From a virus: 64,000 nucleotides of DNA. The notes under the pieces were generated by a model. That model had not been told where the DNA came from, did not search any database, and saw nothing but the letters and a program-made list of their open reading frames with translations. How positions within the stretch are numbered: position 1 is the stretch's first letter; every line of letters begins with the position of its first letter. The translations under genes were made by a program, and so were the position numbers. Shown one piece after another: positions 6,293 through 37,867 of the stretch. The stretch covers positions 16,712-80,711 of the IMG/VR virus record IMGVR_UViG_3300025930_000141. One strand, written 5' to 3'.

Positions 6293-8264
6293 TTCCTTCC
6301 TTTCTTGCTGCAATGGCAGCGTATTTTGCATTAATATAAATGTAAAGGTCTTCGGTATGACGAGCCCATCGGCCATAATTAATGCCGCTGAGTCCGTATT
6401 CTATGATGGGATACCGCTTCTCAACCTCGGTATACTCGGTATGAGATTCCAGTACCTTGAACTTAAGCCCCAACATCGAGGCCCGCTGTAGGTTCTTATC
6501 ATACCCGTCAGGCTTGACGATATCCGTTCTCTTGGATATCCTAATTAGGCGCTTAAAGTCCGGGTCATCAATCTTGGTTTCGTCATACTTGGCAAGCACA
6601 CGACGTTGACTCACGTCTAGACCGAAGTATTCTTTCTGCTCCCCATTGTACATGGATTCGCCGTCCAAGTCAACCTGTGTCTTGAAGTGTTGTATGATAT
6701 GGGTGGCATTGGGAAATGCCTTGGTGAAGGTATTGATTCGGTTATACGGAACAATTACCACGGAGTTGTCAAGGCCGAATTCAGCGGTAATTCTGTGCCA
6801 GTCACCGCGTCGCTCCCATTGCTTGATTTCGTCAAGGTGAGCCCAATACTTAGCCTTCTTTAATGGCTTTCCATATACCCGGCTGCCGTCAGGCTTGAAC
6901 AGGTCCCAGGACCCCTTGATGCGTCCAGCAGCACGAGCCACACGGGCAGGGGGCGGCGTCTGAGCCTTTAGGTCGTCCCAGGAAATTACCAGCGAGGGGT
7001 CAACCCACTCTGAATTCCACGAGGCGTCAGAGGTCGCGTAGACGACGTTGGGGAGCCTGCCTGTGGCCGGTCCATACTTGGTCAGCGCCCATGACTTGAG
7101 GCGTTCCTTTTGGTAAGAGCCAATAGAGTTTACTCCGGTGACAACCATAAAGTCCGAGTCCAGGTCAATGTGGCTCTTATGACGATGCTTGCCAATTTGC
7201 TCTACAGGATACCGGCGATAGTGCGTCTTCCACTCGTAGCCCTCAAACTCCAATTCGCCAGGAATCTTTTCACCCTTATAGGGAATGCGAACGCGGAGCA
7301 GGTTATACCACTTGCGAGAGAACTTCAACGCCTCCCACTTTGTCTTTGCGTGACCGACTTCCTTCTCGGCCAGGTTGCGGCGCTCAGTAATGTAACCATC
7401 CACAATAGTCTGAATAGTCTTCGTGGTCAGGTCGGTGTACTTAAGCGCTTCACGGGCCGGAACGAACTCTACGTCGCCAATGTTGACATAGGCAACAAAT
7501 GGCACATATGAGTCGTGGCTCGGGAATAGGCTGGACGGGTTGTTGACCGGATAAGGAACATTACCCATAACCACATAAGAGTCGCGGTCCACGGTATTGC
7601 GATAAAGATTCTTGCCCAGTTTGTTATCCTTATTGATGAAAGGATTCTCGACGGGACCACCATTGATGGTTACCGTTCCTTCCTCCCAGAACTTGTAAAA
7701 CCGGTAGGCGATGCGGTTAAACTCATCAACGTTTGAAACCGGAACCTCAACGGATACCCCGTCGCGCTCGTCGGTGACCCGAGAGATTACTTCCTTCAAG
7801 ACCATGCGACCATCGTCCTTGCGGGTGATGACCGCGTAAACCTTTTGGCCGTCCTTGACCGAGGTAACCGTGAACGAGTTTGTGTAGGCCAGAGCCGACT
7901 TACAACCATAACCCAGCAGACCGTTGGTGTCCTTGCTGGCGCGCTTATTGGACTTACCGAAAGAGGTGTAAAGTTCCTTCAACTCAGTTGAGGTTAGCCC
8001 GACACCGTGGTCGGTGACCCTAAAGAATGGGTGCAGGTCATCGGGGCTGGGCAGCGTCACATCAATAGGGTCTGTAATGCCTGCCATGATGTGGGAGTCC
8101 ATAGCATTTGTGCTATATTCTCTGATTACCGCCAGTGAGCGGTTGGAGTAAAGGTCCGACAGTGAATCCATGATAAGATGGAACGCTGTCGGGTCAATCG
8201 TAAACTCTACCTCTTCGCCGGGTAGGGTATCAATAACTTCGCCCTGGTGCTTGACCGGAATCAA
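6285..8264 (-). CDS. rIIA: rIIA-like protein (N-terminal GHKL ATPase)
   Basis: LYSN..IREYSTNAMDSH, DHGVG, GLLGYGCKS. Confidence 0.88.
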   Translation of the reverse strand: MIPVKHQGEVIDTLPGEEVEFTIDPTAFHLIMDSLSDLYSNRSLAVIREYSTNAMDSHIMAGITDPIDVTLPSPDDLHPFFRVTDHGVGLTSTELKELYTSFGKSNKRASKDTNGLLGYGCKSALAYTNSFTVTSVKDGQKVYAVITRKDDGRMVLKEVISRVTDERDGVSVEVPVSNVDEFNRIAYRFYKFWEEGTVTINGGPVENPFINKDNKLGKNLYRNTVDRDSYVVMGNVPYPVNNPSSLFPSHDSYVPFVAYVNIGDVEFVPAREALKYTDLTTKTIQTIVDGYITERRNLAEKEVGHAKTKWEALKFSRKWYNLLRVRIPYKGEKIPGELEFEGYEWKTHYRRYPVEQIGKHRHKSHIDLDSDFMVVTGVNSIGSYQKERLKSWALTKYGPATGRLPNVVYATSDASWNSEWVDPSLVISWDDLKAQTPPPARVARAAGRIKGSWDLFKPDGSRVYGKPLKKAKYWAHLDEIKQWERRGDWHRITAEFGLDNSVVIVPYNRINTFTKAFPNATHIIQHFKTQVDLDGESMYNGEQKEYFGLDVSQRRVLAKYDETKIDDPDFKRLIRISKRTDIVKPDGYDKNLQRASMLGLKFKVLESHTEYTEVEKRYPIIEYGLSGINYGRWARHTEDLYIYINAKYAAIAARKEGNV

Positions 8265-16585: not shown

Positions 16586-16781
16586 ATGTTTCCCACCTAA
16601 TTACAATCATTGGTTCCTGATGCTCATTGGGGCCATAACCAACCCACTCTGAGCCTATCTCGATATTAACTGTTGAACCGGGCGGCACCGAGTTGACAGC
16701 CGCCTTTAAGTCTTCGAAGTCTGAGCCGGTACGGACCTCAATTTCATGCGTTGTCTTAATCATCAGAACACCTGTCTCCAC
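16578..16781 (-). CDS. hypothetical protein
   Basis: coupled small ORF. Confidence 0.5.
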   Translation of the reverse strand: METGVLMIKTTHEIEVRTGSDFEDLKAAVNSVPPGSTVNIEIGSEWVGYGPNEHQEPMIVIRWETYD

Positions 16782-19717: not shown

Positions 19718-19790
19718 CCGAGCATGTTTGTGTTAATCGAAATGCGGACAGGTCTTGCACATGGTTGATAAACGACCAACGTCGGCTCGG
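19718..19790 (-). ncRNA. Y-RNA-like copy 1 (short)
   Basis: CCGAGCCGA...CGTTTATC...CGATT...CATGCTCGG shared scaffold. Confidence 0.7.
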
Positions 19791-24578: not shown

Positions 24579-25339
24579 TAGCCCGCCAATACAGCGTCAA
24601 TATAAGACCATACGTTGCGCGGTGTAGTCGTGCCCGCTGGTGTATAAAACTGTGGACGACCCTGGCTAATCCAACGGTCTGCTCCACCTAGGCCTAGATT
24701 ATAAGACGCTACCGCGTCGCCTAGAACGCCATAACGCTGGAACGCTTGGTCATTACCCTTGCTGTTCTTGAAGTGTGTTAATGCGTTGTTCATGTAATTG
24801 GTTACAAAGTCGAATGCAATCTTTGGTCGGAACCGCTCGATTGCATCTAAGTCCGGGTGCGAAGGACCATTGATTTGTGCTAGTCCTAGGTCTTCCGGGT
24901 CCACGAAGCCTACCGCGCCAGCGTCCCATGAGGACTCGTGACGGATAATACCAGAAACAACAACCGGGGTAAGCGGTGGCTTACCGCTGGCCTCGACCTC
25001 TGAGATAAGGTCGGGGTACAGCAATAGGAAAGAACTGTCTTCCCCAATGCCGCCCCAAGGCGTTACGAAGTCCTTATGCTTGTTCTGGAATGTTGTAACT
25101 GCATCGCTCGTGGCCTGGTCGAACTTACCAGTAACCTTAACCGTTCCCTTGCCAAGTCTACGGTTGAGTGCTCGTTGATATGCCTTAACTGCATGATGAA
25201 CAGCAAAGTTATCTTGATTTGTAGTTGGGTCTAGTTCACCAGACCCGAGATAGTAATACGGTCCAGGCTTGGTTGACTTATAAGCCTTGGTACCGCCTGC
25301 GCCGGAATTATTCCAAGCGCCTCTTCCATGAGTTGCCAT
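24578..25339 (-). CDS. peptidoglycan-binding domain + lytic transglycosylase (endolysin-like)
   Basis: VKAYQRALN..TGKFDQAT..AVTTFQ; HESS, GLAQIN, ASYNLG. Confidence 0.8.
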   Translation of the reverse strand: MATHGRGAWNNSGAGGTKAYKSTKPGPYYYLGSGELDPTTNQDNFAVHHAVKAYQRALNRRLGKGTVKVTGKFDQATSDAVTTFQNKHKDFVTPWGGIGEDSSFLLLYPDLISEVEASGKPPLTPVVVSGIIRHESSWDAGAVGFVDPEDLGLAQINGPSHPDLDAIERFRPKIAFDFVTNYMNNALTHFKNSKGNDQAFQRYGVLGDAVASYNLGLGGADRWISQGRPQFYTPAGTTTPRNVWSYIDAVLAG

Positions 25340-25361
25340 AATATTATGTTCCCTTCGGGAG

Positions 25362-25431
25362 TGCTGATGCCGGGAATTGAACCCAGACCAAGTGGTTATG
25401 AGTCACTTCGGCTCGCCGTCGCCTCACCAGC
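25362..25431 (-). tRNA. tRNA-Met/Ile2(CAT), reduced D arm
   Basis: GCTGGTG/CATCAGC; loop CT-CAT-AA. Confidence 0.75.
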
Positions 25432-25523
25432 AATGCTACAGTTCTTACTAACGCACCGCTCCGCTCCGCTGTAGCACCGTGCGGAATCCCATGCGAATGG
25501 GCTTAAGGTACCCTATCCCATTG

Positions 25524-25596
25524 TGCGGTAGACGGGACTCGGACCCGCAACTTCCACGTTGGCAACGTGACACTCTACCAATTGAGTTACTACCAC
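25524..25596 (-). tRNA. tRNA-Gly(GCC)
   Basis: cloverleaf; loop TT-GCC-AA; A73, T-loop TCCGAGT. Confidence 0.82.
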
Positions 25597-25724
25597 TGGT
25601 GGGGCTTGGTTCTTTTATTTATGCAGGTTAAGAAACACCCCGGCAATAAGCCCTGCGTTATCCGTACTTCGTCTTAAGCCGTTTCTGGACCTTCACGAGT
25701 AAAGTTTCGAACCTTTACTGCTTG
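25597..25724 (-). ncRNA. pseudoknotted spacer RNA, copy A
   Basis: shares motifs and covarying helices with 25801-25927; ends ACCA. Confidence 0.7.
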
Positions 25725-25800
25725 TGACGTGGACGGGAATCGAACCCGCAATGGCAAGAGATTGAAAGTCTCCGCTGCAACCGCCAGTGGACACCACGCC
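25725..25800 (-). tRNA. tRNA-Glu(TTC), atypical D arm
   Basis: GGCGTGG/CCACGTC; loop CT-TTC-AA. Confidence 0.78.
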
Positions 25801-25927
25801 TGGTCCGAGGGTCAACACTTTGGATTAGACTGGAAAGTCCCTCGGGCGCTAAAACCAGTGTTACGGGGCCACGTCTTAAGCCGCTACTACCGTCTTCACG
25901 AACAAAGTTTCGAACCTTTGCTGCTTG
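25801..25927 (-). ncRNA. pseudoknotted spacer RNA, copy B
   Basis: see copy A. Confidence 0.7.
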
Positions 25928-26001
25928 TAGCCCCTACGGGATTCGAACCCGTCATCACACAGATTGAGAGTCTGGTATCCTTGCCACAAGACCCAGAGGC
26001 C
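25928..26001 (-). tRNA. tRNA-Glu(CTC)
   Basis: cloverleaf; loop CT-CTC-AA. Confidence 0.85.
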
Positions 26002-26012
26002 GTATGTCACCA

Positions 26013-26041
26013 ATTATACAGGCTGGTGACCCACCTGTCAA
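26013..26041 (-). promoter_or_regulatory. SigA-type promoter
   Basis: TTGACA-17-TATAAT. Confidence 0.85.
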
Positions 26042-26046
26042 GCCTG

Positions 26047-26451
26047 TCAGGGGACGCTGTTGCCGTAGCACTTATCAGGGTCACACCACAACTTATCAAA
26101 TACCCGCCACGGTGCCCCAGCACTAAACTGACGATACGTCAGGATAACGTTTACGTGAGGCGGCGCGCCGTTGTATTGGACATTCTTGAATGCGTGTCCG
26201 TTGTTATTCCAAGAAGCAATCTTTTCACCAGAGCAGTCACAAATGTTTTCTGCTTGAGTTTGGGTTGCTCCACTGGTGGAGTCGTCTCCCGGACACAACT
26301 GGCCTGCCTGAGCATCAATCTCAACAGTACACAAACCCGTGTACTCGCTCTTGGTCCAGGTACCCACAAAAGCGTGGGCCGGGGAGACGGTTGAAAGCAT
26401 TAGCGTCAGACCAGACAACAGCGTGGCGGTCAATAATAGCATTTTCTTCAT
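26047..26451 (-). CDS. secreted Cys-containing protein
   Basis: signal peptide ending AHA; ICDCSG, LWCD. Confidence 0.65.
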   Translation of the reverse strand: MKKMLLLTATLLSGLTLMLSTVSPAHAFVGTWTKSEYTGLCTVEIDAQAGQLCPGDDSTSGATQTQAENICDCSGEKIASWNNNGHAFKNVQYNGAPPHVNVILTYRQFSAGAPWRVFDKLWCDPDKCYGNSVP

Positions 26452-26461
26452 ATTATTCCTT

Positions 26462-27001
26462 TCAGGTCAACCTGGCACGAACTACGGTGCGATAGTCTGT
26501 GTGAACAAACCTCGACGCACATGTAATAAGTGTTAATGTTTCGTGCCTGTTGTTTAATACAGATACATTGGTGTAGTATACGTTGAACTTGTTTGTAACT
26601 TTAAACGTGTATTGGGTTCCACATTTTTCAATGACTACCCGGTCGCCGGGTGTCAATTCTGGGAGCCGCGCAAAGGGCTCTCCGTGCGTTACAACGTGTG
26701 CAGTGAGCGCATAGTTCCCCCTGCCCACCGGGCCGGTATGTGGGAAGTGCCCCACGACCCCTGAGTTTAGCACCTTTTCACTGACGCCATTCTCAATCGG
26801 CATTACGTAATGCCCCCAGGATGGAACCCGAATTAGTGCGCCGGGGCACTTGTGCAGGGCTACGCCCTGTCTAATCTTTGAAACCTCAGCCTTTTGATGT
26901 TGTTCAATGGCTACCGGGTCAGACCCGGTATGGGGCATTCCGAAGAATACAACCATACCGAGCCCGACCACAATCAGTGTCAGTGCGAATAACTTACGCA
27001 C
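26462..27001 (-). CDS. sortase (class E-like)
   Basis: N-terminal TM; GHFP, LTAHVVTHGEPF, TLITC, catalytic Arg; start approximate. Confidence 0.9.
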   Translation of the reverse strand: MRKLFALTLIVVGLGMVVFFGMPHTGSDPVAIEQHQKAEVSKIRQGVALHKCPGALIRVPSWGHYVMPIENGVSEKVLNSGVVGHFPHTGPVGRGNYALTAHVVTHGEPFARLPELTPGDRVVIEKCGTQYTFKVTNKFNVYYTNVSVLNNRHETLTLITCASRFVHTDYRTVVRARLT

Positions 27002-27944
27002 GCTTACGAGACAATAGCAGGAGACCGGAGCCAGCAATTAGCAGACCCAGACCAACAAACAAAGACGTGTTGGCGGTATCTGACAAACCAGCATTCGGTA
27101 GGGACCGTGCTACAGGTGGTGCAAGTGCAGCGGGCGGCTTATGCCCACTTGGGTTATGCGGGGTATTTACCGGAGGCTTGGGCGACGGGTTATCTACCGG
27201 TGGCGTAGGCGTCGGTGTAGGAGTCGGTGTGTCGGTCGTGCAGGTCACACCGTCCGTCCAAGCATAGAAGGTAACCTCGTCAGAGGCTTCCTGGTCAGTT
27301 ACAGTTTCATCAAATGCTTCCTGGTCAACGATAACTTCGTCATATGCCTCCTGGTCTACAACCGTTTCATCATATGCATCTTGGCCCGGAGTAATCAATT
27401 CTCCGTGCTCGCGGTGGAACCAAGAAGAGTTACCGCTATTTCCATTACTGGAATTAAACGTGCCGTAAGTATCTTGGTCAGGACCGCCGTTTTCGTGAGG
27501 CCCCTGCCATGTGCCACGCTCATCATTGGGGAATTCAGGGGTGTAATCTTGTGGTCCATGAGTATAATTCGGGGACCAATTCCACCACAGGTCGGGGCCA
27601 TAAACAGCCGGTACCGCGTCGTGATGGATAACATGTGTTACCGCGTCGTGATGTACTGTATGCGTCACAGCGTCGTGATGTACAACGTGGGTGACTGCTG
27701 GGTGATGAACTGTCAAAACCCACGAGCGTGTAGTATCACACTCGTTGTCGGTGACAAAGGTAGAAACCTCGTCCTCGATTGCACCTTGCGGAACGTCGTT
27801 AGGGCTTGCAACCACAATTGGGTTACTAGCAGACTCACCGGGGACACCGGTTGCGTTGGCGGTGCTGAGCATTGCGCCCGCACCCAAAACAATACCGGCT
27901 ACCATAAGTACGGTCGCCAGTATTGTCGATAAAATCTTTGTCAT
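26994..27944 (-). CDS. LPXTG-type cell-wall-anchored surface protein
   Basis: signal peptide; HHDAVTH and DQEAYDE repeats; PT linker; LPNAG + TM + RKRA. Confidence 0.85.
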   Translation of the reverse strand: MTKILSTILATVLMVAGIVLGAGAMLSTANATGVPGESASNPIVVASPNDVPQGAIEDEVSTFVTDNECDTTRSWVLTVHHPAVTHVVHHDAVTHTVHHDAVTHVIHHDAVPAVYGPDLWWNWSPNYTHGPQDYTPEFPNDERGTWQGPHENGGPDQDTYGTFNSSNGNSGNSSWFHREHGELITPGQDAYDETVVDQEAYDEVIVDQEAFDETVTDQEASDEVTFYAWTDGVTCTTDTPTPTPTPTPPVDNPSPKPPVNTPHNPSGHKPPAALAPPVARSLPNAGLSDTANTSLFVGLGLLIAGSGLLLLSRKRA

Positions 27945-29795: not shown

Positions 29796-29901
29796 ATTCG
29801 GATATGGTACGAAGTCGATAGGACACCAGTCCCAAATAGGCAGGAATCGAACCTGGCCTCGCTAACTTTGGCAACGATAAACGACTATCATCGACCCGAA
29901 T
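29796..29901 (-). ncRNA. Y-RNA-like copy 2 (with T-arm)
   Basis: CGGGTCGA...CGTTTATC...CAGG-TTCGATT-CCTG...CATATCCG. Confidence 0.75.
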
Positions 29902-30050: not shown

Positions 30051-30156
30051 TGGGCATAATTGTAATCGGAATTTAAGTCTACTTTGCGCTTGGAGGCGCA
30101 CGTGCTATTTACACCAATAGGGAAGTCCCCATAGATAACCGATATACTTCGGCCCA
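30051..30156 (-). ncRNA. Y-RNA-like copy 3
   Basis: TGGGCCGA...CGGTTATC...CCGAT...TATGCCCA. Confidence 0.75.
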
Positions 30157-31950: not shown

Positions 31951-33549
31951 TCAGACTCGACCAGCGAAGAAGTTAGCCATTACGCTAGGCGTAGATGAGT
32001 CGAAACCTACTACGTCGAGCATACCGGCGTCCTTCGGGTCTGCCACGGTGAAGCCTGTTGAGACCATACCTACAGAAACTAGGCGGGCGTTGCGGCCACG
32101 AGAGTCGCGGTACTGCTTAAGTGCGACATTTGGCTTAACGCTACCGGCCCACGTCTCGTTGTCGGTGTAAACCGCGAAAGCATCAACATCAATACCCTTG
32201 CTCTTGGCGTAAACCATTGGCTGGGCAATGTCGGTGCCACCGAACGACAAACCGCTGACCTTACGGAGCACGGTTTCGAACGAATCGGCGTCACCGATGT
32301 TCAGGGTTACCAACGAAGTCGTGAAGGCGTTAACCACAACGTAAGGCTCGGTGCGCACGGTGACCATAGCCATGAGCGCAGCGGCCTCTCGACAGTTAAG
32401 ACCAACGAGGCCAGCAGGGGCGTACATGGTCATAGAACCTGAAACGTCAAGGCTTACCATGGTTGGAACACCGGCAGGCTCGACGGTCTTGAAGGACTCA
32501 TAGAATCCAGACTCAAGAGCGCCCAAAACCTTAGCGTTCATACCACGGTGCTGCTTACCGAGGATACCGCGAGCGTTGGCGTACTGGACTGGGTGTACCC
32601 GGCCCTTTACGATACGCTCGCCGTCAGCAAGAGCAATAGCCACGTCGCCTGCGAACTTAACGTCCTTGAAAGCACCAATCTCTTCGAACCGCTTGAGGTT
32701 ACGAATGAGAGCGGTCTGACCTAGAGCGCCGTTGTAGAAAAGCGTCTTCCATACGTCAGGGTCCTTAAGGAACTGGGTAGGAATGGTTTCCCAAGGAAGA
32801 GCCTTGTACGTGTTAAGAACGCGCACAACTTCCTTGGCGCTTGTGGTGCGCTGCATGGCCTTGAAACCGTCGATAATTTCCGGCGTGTTTTCAATCTCGG
32901 CACGGTCGGCCTTGATAGGCCCGCCAAGAACAAAGTCACCAATGCTAACGTTTACGCCCTTAGGGTGAGCAAGACGGAATACGTCGCGGTGCGTCCAACC
33001 GTCGCGCTGGCGGTACTTGACTACCTGATAAGCCAACTGGTTGTCGTCCTTAGACGTGTACCAGTCTGCAAGGCTACCGCGCTTTGCGCGACCAAGGCCA
33101 CCCAAGTCCTTAAGGTACTGTGCGTACTCGAAAAGGTGGGTACCGGTGCGGGCAACCTTAGGGACAAGCGCCCGAACGGCAGCCTTGTTCTCAGCGTTGT
33201 GCATGAGCAAGGCTAGCACGAAAAGGCTAGGGCTGTTCTTAGGTGCGCGGTTTTCGTCAGCGACAGCGCGGAGCGTGTCGATAACCAACTGCTCGTCAGA
33301 CTTGATAAGTGCGAGGACGAACTTAGCGTTGTCCTTGGTCAACTTACGCTCTGAGACGTAGTAGGTACCGCCGTCCGTACCAAGAATCAGGAATCGCTCA
33401 AGGCGAACCTGCGGCGTAACACCGAATACAAAACCTCCGGCGTTGTTACGTACCTCGTCGGTACGTCCAGGGGTACGCTTGTTCTGAGGCGTACCGTTGT
33501 AACGAGTGTTTGCGATTTCACCCGTTAAGTTCTTTAATGCGTTCTTCAT
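31951..33549 (-). CDS. rsr: Ro60/TROVE RNA-binding protein
   Basis: NNAGGFVF, RFLILGTDGGTYY, KYRQRDGWTHRD, LPWE, ALIRNL, RVHP, vWA DVSGSM, TDNETW, GFDS. Confidence 0.95.
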   Translation of the reverse strand: MKNALKNLTGEIANTRYNGTPQNKRTPGRTDEVRNNAGGFVFGVTPQVRLERFLILGTDGGTYYVSERKLTKDNAKFVLALIKSDEQLVIDTLRAVADENRAPKNSPSLFVLALLMHNAENKAAVRALVPKVARTGTHLFEYAQYLKDLGGLGRAKRGSLADWYTSKDDNQLAYQVVKYRQRDGWTHRDVFRLAHPKGVNVSIGDFVLGGPIKADRAEIENTPEIIDGFKAMQRTTSAKEVVRVLNTYKALPWETIPTQFLKDPDVWKTLFYNGALGQTALIRNLKRFEEIGAFKDVKFAGDVAIALADGERIVKGRVHPVQYANARGILGKQHRGMNAKVLGALESGFYESFKTVEPAGVPTMVSLDVSGSMTMYAPAGLVGLNCREAAALMAMVTVRTEPYVVVNAFTTSLVTLNIGDADSFETVLRKVSGLSFGGTDIAQPMVYAKSKGIDVDAFAVYTDNETWAGSVKPNVALKQYRDSRGRNARLVSVGMVSTGFTVADPKDAGMLDVVGFDSSTPSVMANFFAGRV

Positions 33550-33690: not shown

Positions 33691-33833
33691 ATGCTGGATA
33701 TAAGTGCGAAATCGGGGTTTAACGGCGGCTTTACCATTTGCCTATACCCCACATGAATTGGGTGGGGCAACAGGATTCGAACCTGCATTCACCGGCTCCA
33801 AAGGCGATAACCGATATTCAATCGACCCAGCAT
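33691..33833 (-). ncRNA. yrlA: YrlA-type Y RNA (copy 4) with full tRNA-like domain
   Basis: closing stem ATGCTGG/CCAGCAT; T-arm, closed acceptor hairpin, D-arm TAGGCAAATGGTAAAGCC; adjacent to Ro60. Confidence 0.85.
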
Positions 33834-33842
33834 TAAGTTGTG

Positions 33843-33958
33843 TACCGAATATGTTATTGCAACGGAGTTTTTACTATATAGCATACAGCACACCGACAGG
33901 GCCGGTGTATTGGATTTGAACCAATGATTTCCGATAACCGTTAACATTCGACTCGGTA
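33843..33958 (-). ncRNA. Y-RNA-like copy 5 (T-arm + acceptor hairpin)
   Basis: TACCGAGTCGA...CGGTTATC...ATTGG-TTCAAAT-CCAAT...CATATTCGGTA. Confidence 0.8.
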
Positions 33959-34114: not shown

Positions 34115-34225
34115 TACCGGACATAAGGTTGAAATCGAGCGTTTTGACTGGGGACCGCCCCATGCACGAGTCGAACGTGCCCGACCTTATATTCAGTAAG
34201 ATAACCGATTTCATTCGGCCCGGTA
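34115..34225 (-). ncRNA. Y-RNA-like copy 6 (T-arm)
   Basis: TACCGGGCCGA...CGGTTATC...GCACG-TTCGACT-CGTGC...TATGTCCGGTA. Confidence 0.8.
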
Positions 34226-34235
34226 TTTAGTTTTG

Positions 34236-34309
34236 AGAGGATATGTGGTCGGCATCGTGTTTATGGTTAATTGCAATATAATTAGATAAACGATACCGTT
34301 CGACCCTCT
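34236..34309 (-). ncRNA. Y-RNA-like copy 7 (short, AU-rich apex)
   Basis: AGAGGGTCGA...CGTTTATC...CGATGCCG...CATATCCTCT. Confidence 0.75.
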
Positions 34310-34399: not shown

Positions 34400-34464
34400 A
34401 GCGAATATGTGGTTGACCAACGGGGGTTCATTGTTGTAAGATAACCGTCAATCTTCGACTCGCT
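34400..34464 (-). ncRNA. Y-RNA-like copy 8 (minimal)
   Basis: AGCGAGTCGA...CGGTTATC...CCGTTG...CATATTCGCT. Confidence 0.75.
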
Positions 34465-34760: not shown

Positions 34761-35102
34761 CTATGTAATTTCTATGACAGGAATCCCCATCGCCCTATAG
34801 TGTAGCACGACCTCAGGGTCGTTGTCAAGCGCCTCGACCACGCTGTAGACCTGTCGAATTTTCTCAACTAGTTCAACCTTGTAAAGTGGATTCTTTTTCC
34901 GGTCTGGTGAGAACGCCATACCTCGGAGTGGAATCACATCTTTAAGAGTGTTATAGATGAAATCTTCATTTGTCTCCTGCATACGGTAAGTTACTACATA
35001 TACCGGCAGCCCGCGTTCATTCAAGTAATCCACAGTGGGTTGAATAAGACCGTAGTATTTCTTGAATAATACACCGTCGAAATCGCTGACTATTATGTCC
35101 AT
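34761..35102 (-). CDS. HAD-family phosphatase (PNK 3'-phosphatase-like)
   Basis: VSDFDGVL, VVTYR, K, LDND. Confidence 0.7.
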   Translation of the reverse strand: MDIIVSDFDGVLFKKYYGLIQPTVDYLNERGLPVYVVTYRMQETNEDFIYNTLKDVIPLRGMAFSPDRKKNPLYKVELVEKIRQVYSVVEALDNDPEVVLHYRAMGIPVIEIT

Positions 35103-35176
35103 GGCACGGGTGGAGGGATTCGAACCCATCGCACTAGAGTTTTGGAGGCTCTGTGACTCAACCAACGCTCACCCGC
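35102..35176 (-). tRNA. tRNA-Trp(CCA)
   Basis: G73-CCA; loop CT-CCA-AA. Confidence 0.82.
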
Positions 35177-37174: not shown

Positions 37175-37407
37175 TAGCCGTCGTAGTCCCAATTCTTGTA
37201 TCGCCACTCACTGTCGGGCGCGAGGTTCTTAGCCTCTTGTGCCTTTTCACGAGCATATTCGTCACGGTCGTCGTCCCATACCGGGTGAATGCCTAGGCCC
37301 ACAAGTTCGCAATCAAAGTTATCTTCGATAAGCGCAGCCAACTTCTCTAGAAAATCTTCGTGTCGGTCTTTAAATTCACCAGTAATGGTAATTTCTTGTA
37401 GTTTCAC
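37174..37407 (-). CDS. hypothetical protein
   Basis: coupled ORF. Confidence 0.55.
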   Translation of the reverse strand: MKLQEITITGEFKDRHEDFLEKLAALIEDNFDCELVGLGIHPVWDDDRDEYAREKAQEAKNLAPDSEWRYKNWDYDG

Positions 37408-37694
37408 TTCAAGTACCTTTCAATCATACCCTCTAGCCACTCGTAGCCTACGGGATTGGCGGTAAGGATAGTATACTTCTCAAACCGGAAGTTATTCTCA
37501 ATCATCCACAAGACTACCGGGCGGCTGGTGTCGTCACCGCCGAGGTCGTGGTCCAGGGCAATCTCAGTATGTGGGATAAGATACCACAACGGGTGGCTAG
37601 CCTTTTCAAGCAGTGCAATGGCACCCTTGGACGAATAGGCGCGCATCCAGCCAGCGTCAGGCTGAGGTCTTACGTCGTCTACCCAAATCTTCAT
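37404..37694 (-). CDS. cyclic-phosphate-processing receiver domain protein
   Basis: IWVDDVRP, LDHDLG, TANPVG. Confidence 0.8.
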   Translation of the reverse strand: MKIWVDDVRPQPDAGWMRAYSSKGAIALLEKASHPLWYLIPHTEIALDHDLGGDDTSRPVVLWMIENNFRFEKYTILTANPVGYEWLEGMIERYLK

Positions 37695-37867
37695 CTGTAA
37701 TACCCCGGCTTGTCTATAGGAGTTGGTGTTATGGCCTTGTTTCCACAGTTCGCACAATACATTTCAAGCGAGTACATGGCAATCTCATAGTCATCGAATG
37801 ACGCAAGTATCTTCCACAAGTTGGAGCCGCACACGCACTCGTGGGTGATGACCCCTAGGTCTATCAT
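37691..37867 (-). CDS. small Zn-ribbon protein
   Basis: HECVCGS...CANCG...PTP. Confidence 0.6.
   Translation of the reverse strand: MIDLGVITHECVCGSNLWKILASFDDYEIAMYSLEMYCANCGNKAITPTPIDKPGYYR

Follow-up and report, generated by a model that had tools for sequence, protein, structure and literature searches.

Large phages hold many unexplained small RNAs among their transfer RNA (tRNA) genes, and two spacers in the tRNA array of an uncultured virus raise the question of what such RNAs are and what they might do. The array lies in a stretch of 64,000 nucleotides (nt), hereafter the window, which corresponds to positions 16,712 to 80,711 of the IMG/VR virus record IMGVR_UViG_3300025930_000141 (80.7 kb in all); coordinates given below are those of the window unless another locus is named. 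Two paralogous structured RNAs are present on the minus strand, in the spacers between tRNA-Glu(CUC) and tRNA-Glu(UUC) and between tRNA-Glu(UUC) and tRNA-Gly(GCC), where a first-pass annotation made from the letters alone had placed them. They are referred to here as copy A (25801..25927; 127 nt, counting C74 of tRNA-Glu(CUC)) and copy B (25597..25724; 128 nt), and were the only two copies present in a record-wide search. Comparison of the two with a third copy from a related phage strongly supports a real structured RNA, hereafter the element, whose seven helices, those of a pseudoknot included, appear to have been kept through compensatory changes.

The helices were derived from three copies in two related phages, with an alignment partly fitted to the structure; by covariance-model alignment and RNAalifold the three copies align into seven helices. 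The 5' part of the element, H0 together with H1, is one long hairpin in which GCWG-CAARR is paired with YYUUG-YW(Y)GU around a UUCGAA loop (GCAG-CAAAG/CUUUG-UU(C)GU with the loop G-UUCGAA-A in copy A, 25898..25924; 25721-25695 in copy B). The block CAAGCAG named in the first-pass annotation is thus present, but its first C belongs to the upstream tRNA and its GCWG pairs with the YW(Y)GU that precedes GAAG, which lengthens the first hairpin; H0 is supported by one compensatory change, from A-U to U-A, at the sole variable position of this block. An invariant GAAG (25897-25894 in copy A, 25694-25691 in copy B) leads to the second arm (25863..25893 and 25690-25660, respectively), where H2, a helix of 4 base pairs (bp) with three positions changed on both sides (ACGG/CCGU in copy A), leads to an internal loop and then to a small hairpin, H2', which reads CGGC-UUAA-GACG in the window phage as against AGAU-GCAU-AUCU in the same columns of the third copy. 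The arm is followed by an AAC that is invariant in the three copies (25862-25860 and 25659-25657).

The 3' part of the element is an H-type pseudoknot (25805..25859 in copy A, 25656-25601 in copy B). The five nucleotides after AAC form H3, of 5 bp, with the loop of H4 (ACUGG, 25859-25855, with CCAGU in copy A; GCAGG with CCUGC in copy B). H4 itself is in two parts, the outer of 4-7 bp and the inner of 4-5 bp; its 5' strand spans 11-12 nt, and its 3' strand has a bulge of 2-7 nt. In copy A the outer part is CCGAGGG/CCCUCGG (7 bp), the inner one ACUUU/AAAGU (5 bp) and the bulge 5 nt long; in copy B the two parts are GGGG/CCCC and UUCUU/AAGAA. ACCA follows H4 in all three copies, though the adjoining stem strand differs wholly between them (CCCUCGG, CCCC and CGCCCC). 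In copy A the ACCA (25801..25804) is single-stranded and flush with G+1 of tRNA-Glu(UUC), and in copy B (25600-25597) it is flush with tRNA-Gly.

Compensatory changes had been proposed for four helices, the last two of which were said to cross; all four are present, and the third copy forms the same helices with other letters. Over the three copies and six of the helices (30 pairs), 91.9% of cells are paired as against 77% in shuffles, and 13 of the 30 pairs are changed on both sides as against 4.8, values which none of 500 shuffles reached in either case. Controls in which the partners were slid by 1-3 columns gave 28-45% pairing and 0-2 pairs changed on both sides. The model was drawn on copy A, so that copy B and the third copy each provide an out-of-sample test; in 20,000 shuffles of the variable segments of copy B, an anchored 4-bp H2 arose in 0.4% and the pseudoknot with a stem flush with ACCA in 0.17%. 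The first-pass annotation was correct on these points. Two other readings of the same sequence were tried and rejected: a tag reading frame across GCU-UAA, as in transfer-messenger RNA (tmRNA), is by inspection not conserved between the copies, and a kissing-loop interaction of the CUUAAG palindrome is disfavoured by the third copy, which favours a local hairpin instead. A coding check of the element found no coding potential, and an open reading frame (ORF) on the opposite strand had no Pfam match.

The third copy (L106:2641-2767) lies on a 97.5-kb phage contig, G006, and was found with the downstream lysin gene as an anchor. A covariance model built from both window copies and used before the third was known (R1) was searched in phage genomes and gave this one further copy, at 60.2 bits (E 3e-13). 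It stands directly behind a tRNA-Glu(CUC), and the tRNA array of its contig is syntenic with that of the window (Lys, Lys, Glu, Glu, Met, lysin, Cys, Arg). The conserved blocks listed in the first-pass annotation all occur in both window copies; one of them, the 12-nt CGGCTTAAGACG, is not kept in the third copy, where H2' has another sequence, and the block is thus a helix and not a conserved single strand. Little stem sequence is common, by eye, to the two tRNA-Glu(CUC) genes (window 25928-26001; L106:2570-2641), both of which have a G1.U72 wobble and discriminator A. An odd tRNA-like gene at L106:2814-2896, 54 nt past the third copy, is not called by ARAGORN. Its anticodon loop reads CUCAUAA and its 'T loop' UGCAUCA, and of the Rfam models that of the tymovirus tRNA-like element matches it best, at 22 bits (E 0.067), which is below threshold. 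A resemblance of the sequence behind the tRNA-Glu(UUC) of L106 to a decayed copy was at the level of shuffles (133/500) and was discarded. The same contig has a tmRNA at L106:7012-7387 with the ARAGORN tag ADNYNIVAEAEAILRSASLATV; Rfam at gathering threshold gave no tmRNA in the window.

The family found thus comprises three copies on two contigs, each behind a tRNA-Glu inside a tRNA operon. Exact-pattern scans on the paralog blocks, three of viral contigs in IMG/VR and one of metagenome contigs, gave chance matches in coding DNA only; a later viral scan returned the G006 contig and two chance matches in coding DNA, and a scan of genome contigs gave 82 matches, all weak by R1 and none convincing. 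The lysin gene next to the array has homologues 60-75% identical in about 100 further contigs by protein search. R1 had no match in five Streptomyces phages of the Stanwilliamsviridae, and a model of all three sequences (R2) gave no further copy in 1.49 Mb of phage loci, nor in nine more related records scanned in full, of which two are complete genomes. Weak R2 matches in L040, L041 and L046 were rejected, as the first hairpin is broken in them. The small size of the family limits the generality of the finding.

The significance of the ACCA tail depends on how the other tRNA genes of the phage end. ARAGORN finds 30 tRNAs in the window, all on the minus strand, and Rfam adds four, also on the minus strand. 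C74 follows directly after the discriminator in all 34 of these tRNAs (8754-35844, minus strand), while the full CCA is encoded in only three of the 34; the same pattern is also seen in at least nine of the ten tRNAs of the related phage locus, L106. This suggests a 3' maturation that would keep the encoded C74 and add only CA. A CAA trailer occurs in nine of the 34 window tRNAs. Since C74 is universal and CAA is shared by many of the tRNAs, the first C of the CAAGCAG block is taken to be the C74 of the tRNA, and CAA a general processing signature. Conversely, the full ACCA is a special feature of the element, because the tRNAs of this phage are mostly without an encoded CCA; among 35 tRNA leaders in the window, ACCA directly before +1 is found in two, namely those formed by copies A and B. 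The tail is conserved across the three copies, while the flush tRNA junction is not.

Compact H-type pseudoknots (36-41 nt) that end in NCCA are not enriched in the window, with three on the minus strand against 0-5 in shuffles. One such leader was noticed in L005, the closest Ro60 relative, where the 71-nt spacer between two tRNA-Pro(UGG) genes (L005:6459-6529) has a 9-bp hairpin and a 39-nt pseudoknot (6491-6529; CCUGC/GCAGG and CUCAG/CUGAG) ending in G-CCA flush with the second tRNA. The case is weak, as one such leader among 172 tRNAs is below the 2.7 CCA endings expected by chance.

Read along the minus strand, the unit that holds the element begins with a consensus promoter, which is followed by tRNA-Glu(CUC), copy A, tRNA-Glu(UUC), copy B, tRNA-Gly(GCC), a 91-nt spacer, tRNA-Met and a lytic transglycosylase gene. 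The promoter-like site (26013..26041) is of the sigma-70 type, with TTGACA and TATAAT separated by 17 nt (12/12 positions), about 12 nt upstream of tRNA-Glu(CUC), and is the likely start of a transcription unit that holds both copies. tRNA-Glu(CUC) (25928..26001) has its discriminator A at 25928 and encodes C74 at 25927, but not the CA. tRNA-Glu(UUC) (25725..25800; C74 at 25724) has an atypical D arm, 31.9 bits by Rfam and no ARAGORN call, and tRNA-Gly(GCC) occupies 25524..25596. The 91-nt spacer between tRNA-Gly and tRNA-Met (25432-25522) contains a GCGGAGCGGAGCGG repeat and a hairpin, AAUGGG...CCCAUU, whose loop includes CUUAAG; its similarity to the elements is no greater than that of shuffles. 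Immediately upstream of the tRNA-Glu unit are genes for a sortase (PF04203, E 8e-25) and an adjoining LPXTG cell-wall-anchor protein (26462-27944, minus strand), which point to a Gram-positive host, and among cultured phages the closest relatives belong to the Stanwilliamsviridae of Streptomyces (DNA polymerase III alpha 45% identical). The sequence of the record recurs, with no differences, in DNA contigs of four rhizosphere and soil runs, and thus gives no extra covariation.

The favoured explanation, which is held tentatively, is that the element is a stable mimic of the acceptor end of a tRNA, excised by the tRNA-processing enzymes and acting in trans. Each copy would encode a structured RNA some 123 nt long, co-transcribed with the tRNA-Glu genes from the consensus promoter. 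Its 5' end would be made by 3' processing of the upstream tRNA after C74, and its 3' end by an RNase P cut at +1 of the downstream tRNA, that of tRNA-Gly in the case of copy B; the copy of the related phage would instead be trimmed as far as its structured end. H4, with its 7 and 5 bp in copy A, resembles a tRNA's acceptor/T limb and leads into the single-stranded ACCA. The encoded CCA and the knotted helix together could be a ligand for readers of the tRNA 3' end, for which RNase P with its RCCA-binding loop, the CCA-adding enzyme and perhaps a synthetase are candidates. 3' exonucleases act poorly on a stable helix with an overhang of 4 nt, and the CCA tail and the knotted helix would also protect the RNA from them. 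In trans, it could act as a decoy or a cofactor within the large tRNA and tRNA-mimic programme of the phage.

This explanation is preferred because an invariant ACCA stands behind a freely varying stem, because an RNase P cut would leave exactly that end, and because pseudoknots with an RCCA tail have a precedent: RNase P cleaves H-type pseudoknots that carry a 3' RCCA, in a manner that depends on the tail (PMC12710915). RNase P likewise cuts a Y RNA of a mycobacterium, and this RNA is given CCA (PMC4201824). The promoter-like site just upstream, the place within tRNA operons in both phages and the precedent of two stable RNAs in the T4 tRNA cluster, described below, also speak for it.

Several observations weigh against it. 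The ACCA had been described as flush with the next tRNA and as the end that RNase P would release; this layout holds for both window copies, where cleavage would leave a 3' ACCA, but in the related phage the ACCA is followed by 54 nt before the odd tRNA-like gene, and the flush junction is thus not conserved. The tail of the third copy is moreover probably of 5 nt, C-ACCA, if its 6-bp stem forms. H3 stacked on H4 would give a limb of 14-17 bp, which exceeds the 12 bp of a tRNA. The first hairpin had been read as a T-loop hairpin, which does not hold, as the UUCGAA loop is closed by G.A or U.G and is not the canonical 7-nt T-loop with G53-C61; no D-loop partner was identified either, and the tRNA and tRNA-like structure models of Rfam give nothing in the element. 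The minimum free energy of the nested fold is no better than that of shuffles (z about 0), in a calculation that is blind to the pseudoknot. With three copies from two related phages only, the covariation counts rest on few independent events, and the two complete Ro60 phage genomes scanned are without the element. Lastly, the sequencing runs listed with the phage sequence include no RNA run, and a discrete RNA and its ends are thus predictions.

It is unlikely that the element acts in cis in the processing of tRNA-Glu, either as a new self-cleaving ribozyme that frees the tRNA 3' end or as a folded spacer that directs host nucleases, the RNA being a by-product. All three copies begin directly after the C74 of a tRNA-Glu, and phages are known to put ribozymes exactly at tRNA 3' ends, the theta ribozymes, behind tRNAs without an encoded CCA (PMC10879173); conserved junction nucleotides and a pseudoknot are also typical of small ribozymes. 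The junction C and CAA are however common to many tRNAs of this phage that have no element, so that the conservation of the junction is largely explained by the trailer signature. Rfam at E <=10 gave no match to HDV-like (hepatitis delta virus-like), hatchet, pistol, twister or hammerhead ribozymes. The arrangement of the HDV type, with P1, P1.1, P2, P3 and G1, is absent: the 5' nucleotides pair in a local hairpin and not in a P1, no downstream complement of the 5' strand is seen by eye, and the first nucleotide past C74 is A and not G. A pure processing signal would need no conserved ACCA 120 nt downstream, and the other 32 tRNAs mature without an element.

Also in favour of a cis-acting element, ends with a 2',3'-cyclic phosphate might be handled by two products of the phage, a receiver domain of the cyclic-phosphate-processing type and a phosphatase with a weak match to the PNKP type. 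The ORF for the former (PF20274, 64 bits) lies at 37404-37757 and that for the latter, of the HAD class (21 bits, below cut-off), at 34761-35165, both on the minus strand; their position near Ro60 and the tRNA array suggests a context of RNA end healing.

It is quite unlikely that the phage Ro60 (Rsr) protein binds or acts on the element, which would then be a non-canonical ligand alongside the Y-like RNAs of the phage. The Ro60 gene (31951..33549, minus strand), with TROVE and Ro60 vWA domains, lies 6 kb upstream on the same strand and is given as context, with no demonstrated link to the element. In both carrier phages Ro60 is found 6-7 kb upstream on the same strand and Y-like RNAs occur among the tRNAs. 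Ro60 threads single-stranded 3' ends of structured RNAs. Bacterial Y RNAs moreover mimic tRNA, the RNase P-cut one with its CCA included (PMC4201824). Nevertheless, the two carrier phages are relatives, and the co-occurrence with Ro60 is a single event; R1 and R2 found nothing in 77 other Ro60 phage loci, among them loci fetched with a Ro60 alignment, nor in the whole related records mentioned above, so that the element is not a general partner of Ro60. It also has none of the Ro60-binding scaffold common to the eight Y-like RNAs of the phage.

A canonical Y RNA, which the Ro60 gene brought to mind, was likewise rejected, since the Ro60-binding scaffold is missing and other Ro60 phages are without the element. 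Eight Y-RNA-like elements do lie around Ro60 among the tRNAs (19718-19790, 29796-29901, 30051-30156, 33691-33833, 33843-33958, 34115-34225, 34236-34309 and 34400-34464, all on the minus strand, several with T arms), and in these the Ro60 motif of the literature, GNCGAA, lies in a terminal stem with G(G/A)GYCGA and is accompanied by AUCGKUUAUC. The element has neither of these, nor a GNCGAA(N)G stem formed from both ends, as its 5' end is in a local hairpin and its 3' end in the pseudoknot. The Rfam model of YrlA (RF02553) gave at best 14.2 bits against a cut-off of 69, in a match that overlaps tRNA-Glu(UUC), and its other sub-threshold matches in the genome were set aside as tRNA-dimer artefacts, a risk of which PMC4201824 warns.

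Some further observations concern the Y-like RNAs and Ro60. Y-like RNAs of the same kind fill tRNA spacers upstream of Ro60 in L005, L008 and L198. GAUAAC, which comprises the end of H2 and the AAC (25657-25662 in copy B, and also in the third copy), is complementary over 6 bp to the invariant GUUAUC of the Y-like RNAs (4 bp in copy A), which may be chance. The Ro60 gene of the related phage (L111:832-2652, minus strand) is split into ORFs of 190 and 362 amino acids by about 160 nt with stop codons, and tblastn aligns across the gap at 49% identity; an insertion or intervening sequence, a frameshift in a pseudogene and a fault in the assembly might each account for the split.

A true tRNA-like structure of a DNA phage, tied to tRNA-Glu and with a knotted acceptor limb that ends in the encoded ACCA, which would be charged with an amino acid, bound by elongation factor, or attacked in place of the tRNAs by host defence toxins that modify CCA ends, is decidedly unlikely.

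That the element is a base-pairing regulatory RNA, which would use its invariant unpaired nucleotides to bind a transcript of the host or of the phage, is very unlikely. C4 of phage P1 and CI of P4, immunity RNAs processed by RNase P, would be the model for such a function. Invariant short single strands (GAAG, AAC, the UUCGAA loop and UAA in loop 3) between freely varying stems fit a design of seed and scaffold, and the consensus promoter makes a high expression likely. Most of the blocks first seen as single-stranded are however paired once the third copy and RNAalifold are added, and the invariant remainder is only 3-6 nt long. A search of the phage genome for antisense targets of the conserved blocks found none, and the 80.7-kb record holds no bipartite complementary site beyond the element's own antisense strand.

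Finally, a lack of any function of its own, the element being a decaying duplicated spacer, a tRNA relic or a palindromic site acting at the DNA level, would agree with the very small family, the unremarkable energy of the nested fold and the DNA palindromes in several conserved blocks (TTCGAA, CTTAAG), but is hardly credible given the 13 pairs changed on both sides with pairing kept, the crossing helix included, spacers without a tRNA model match, an element that keeps its invariant blocks and all helices while the stems of the neighbouring tRNA-Glu(CUC) look diverged between the phages by eye, and a CTTAAG palindrome that is swapped in the third copy for another hairpin in the same columns, which fits RNA pairing and not a DNA site.

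To the small RNAs found among phage tRNA genes the element adds one with a defined fold, a tRNA-Glu neighbourhood conserved across the two phages, and an encoded CCA tail of the kind that most tRNA genes of this phage are without. If it is handled by tRNA enzymes, then DNA phages, like plant RNA viruses, would use pseudoknotted mimics of the acceptor end, and the element would provide a compact substrate on which to study RNase P, the addition of CCA and perhaps charging. Should it counter defence toxins that target CCA, or work together with the Ro60 and RNA-repair genes, it would link tRNA mimicry to the conflict between phage and host; and if it were a true tRNA-like structure, it would be the counterpart in a bacterial virus of the tRNA-like 3' ends of plant viruses.

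Among known systems, no described family had been recognised in the element, and this stands: Rfam at gathering thresholds gave no family match, and at E <=10 gave the flanking tRNAs and noise. Around the element only the four flanking tRNAs match RF00005, the spacers being empty, and ARAGORN calls nothing in them; the element is thus, as judged from its sequence, not a tRNA, a tmRNA or a known ribozyme. The theta ribozymes, minimal HDV-like ribozymes (PMC10879173), share with it a pseudoknot and a place at the 3' end of phage tRNAs without encoded CCA, but the element has no nested double pseudoknot of P1, P2 and P3 and no G1, is over twice as long and does not match their model. Y RNAs of the YrlA type (RF02553) are likewise tRNA-mimicking non-coding RNAs near Ro60, found also in phages, some of them cut by RNase P and given CCA (PMC4201824); the element differs from them in having no terminal Ro60-binding GNCGAA stem, no D arm and a score below threshold, and in its absence from other Ro60 phages.

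The likeness to plant-virus tRNA-like structures suggested in the first-pass annotation is borne out in topology, though not by the Rfam model. The tymovirus type (RF00233), like the element, has hairpins followed by an H-type pseudoknot whose second stem stands directly before ACCA, and each of the three copies has this arrangement of pseudoknot and ACCA, the L106 copy with one additional C. The RF00233 model itself gave no match up to E = 10 on 25300-26100. The hairpins of the element are not D, anticodon and T arms and its stems are much longer; it is an RNA of a DNA phage with a predicted excision from a tRNA operon, whereas the tymovirus structure is the 3' end of an RNA genome.

The closest parallel in setting is offered by the two stable RNAs of the T4 tRNA cluster, rnaC (139 nt, species 1) and rnaD (119 nt, species 2). 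To our knowledge, fifty years have not given either a function. Like the element, they are small RNAs other than tRNAs that lie in tandem with phage tRNAs, in the same orientation. The first base of rnaD lies one base past the annotated end of tRNA-Arg and its 3' end reads ...GCGCACCA, with an ACCA end as in the element; rnaC has a T arm. Unlike the element, they follow tRNA-Arg at the end of the cluster and not tRNA-Glu, and no homology was found, R1 with filters off reaching at most 7.1 bits on the T4 tRNA region. What defines the T4 type, a gene other than a tRNA within a phage tRNA cluster, abutting a tRNA and with tRNA-like features at its end, is found in the element as well. The element represents an uncatalogued family, which would belong with the known tRNA-mimicking small RNAs excised from phage tRNA operons.

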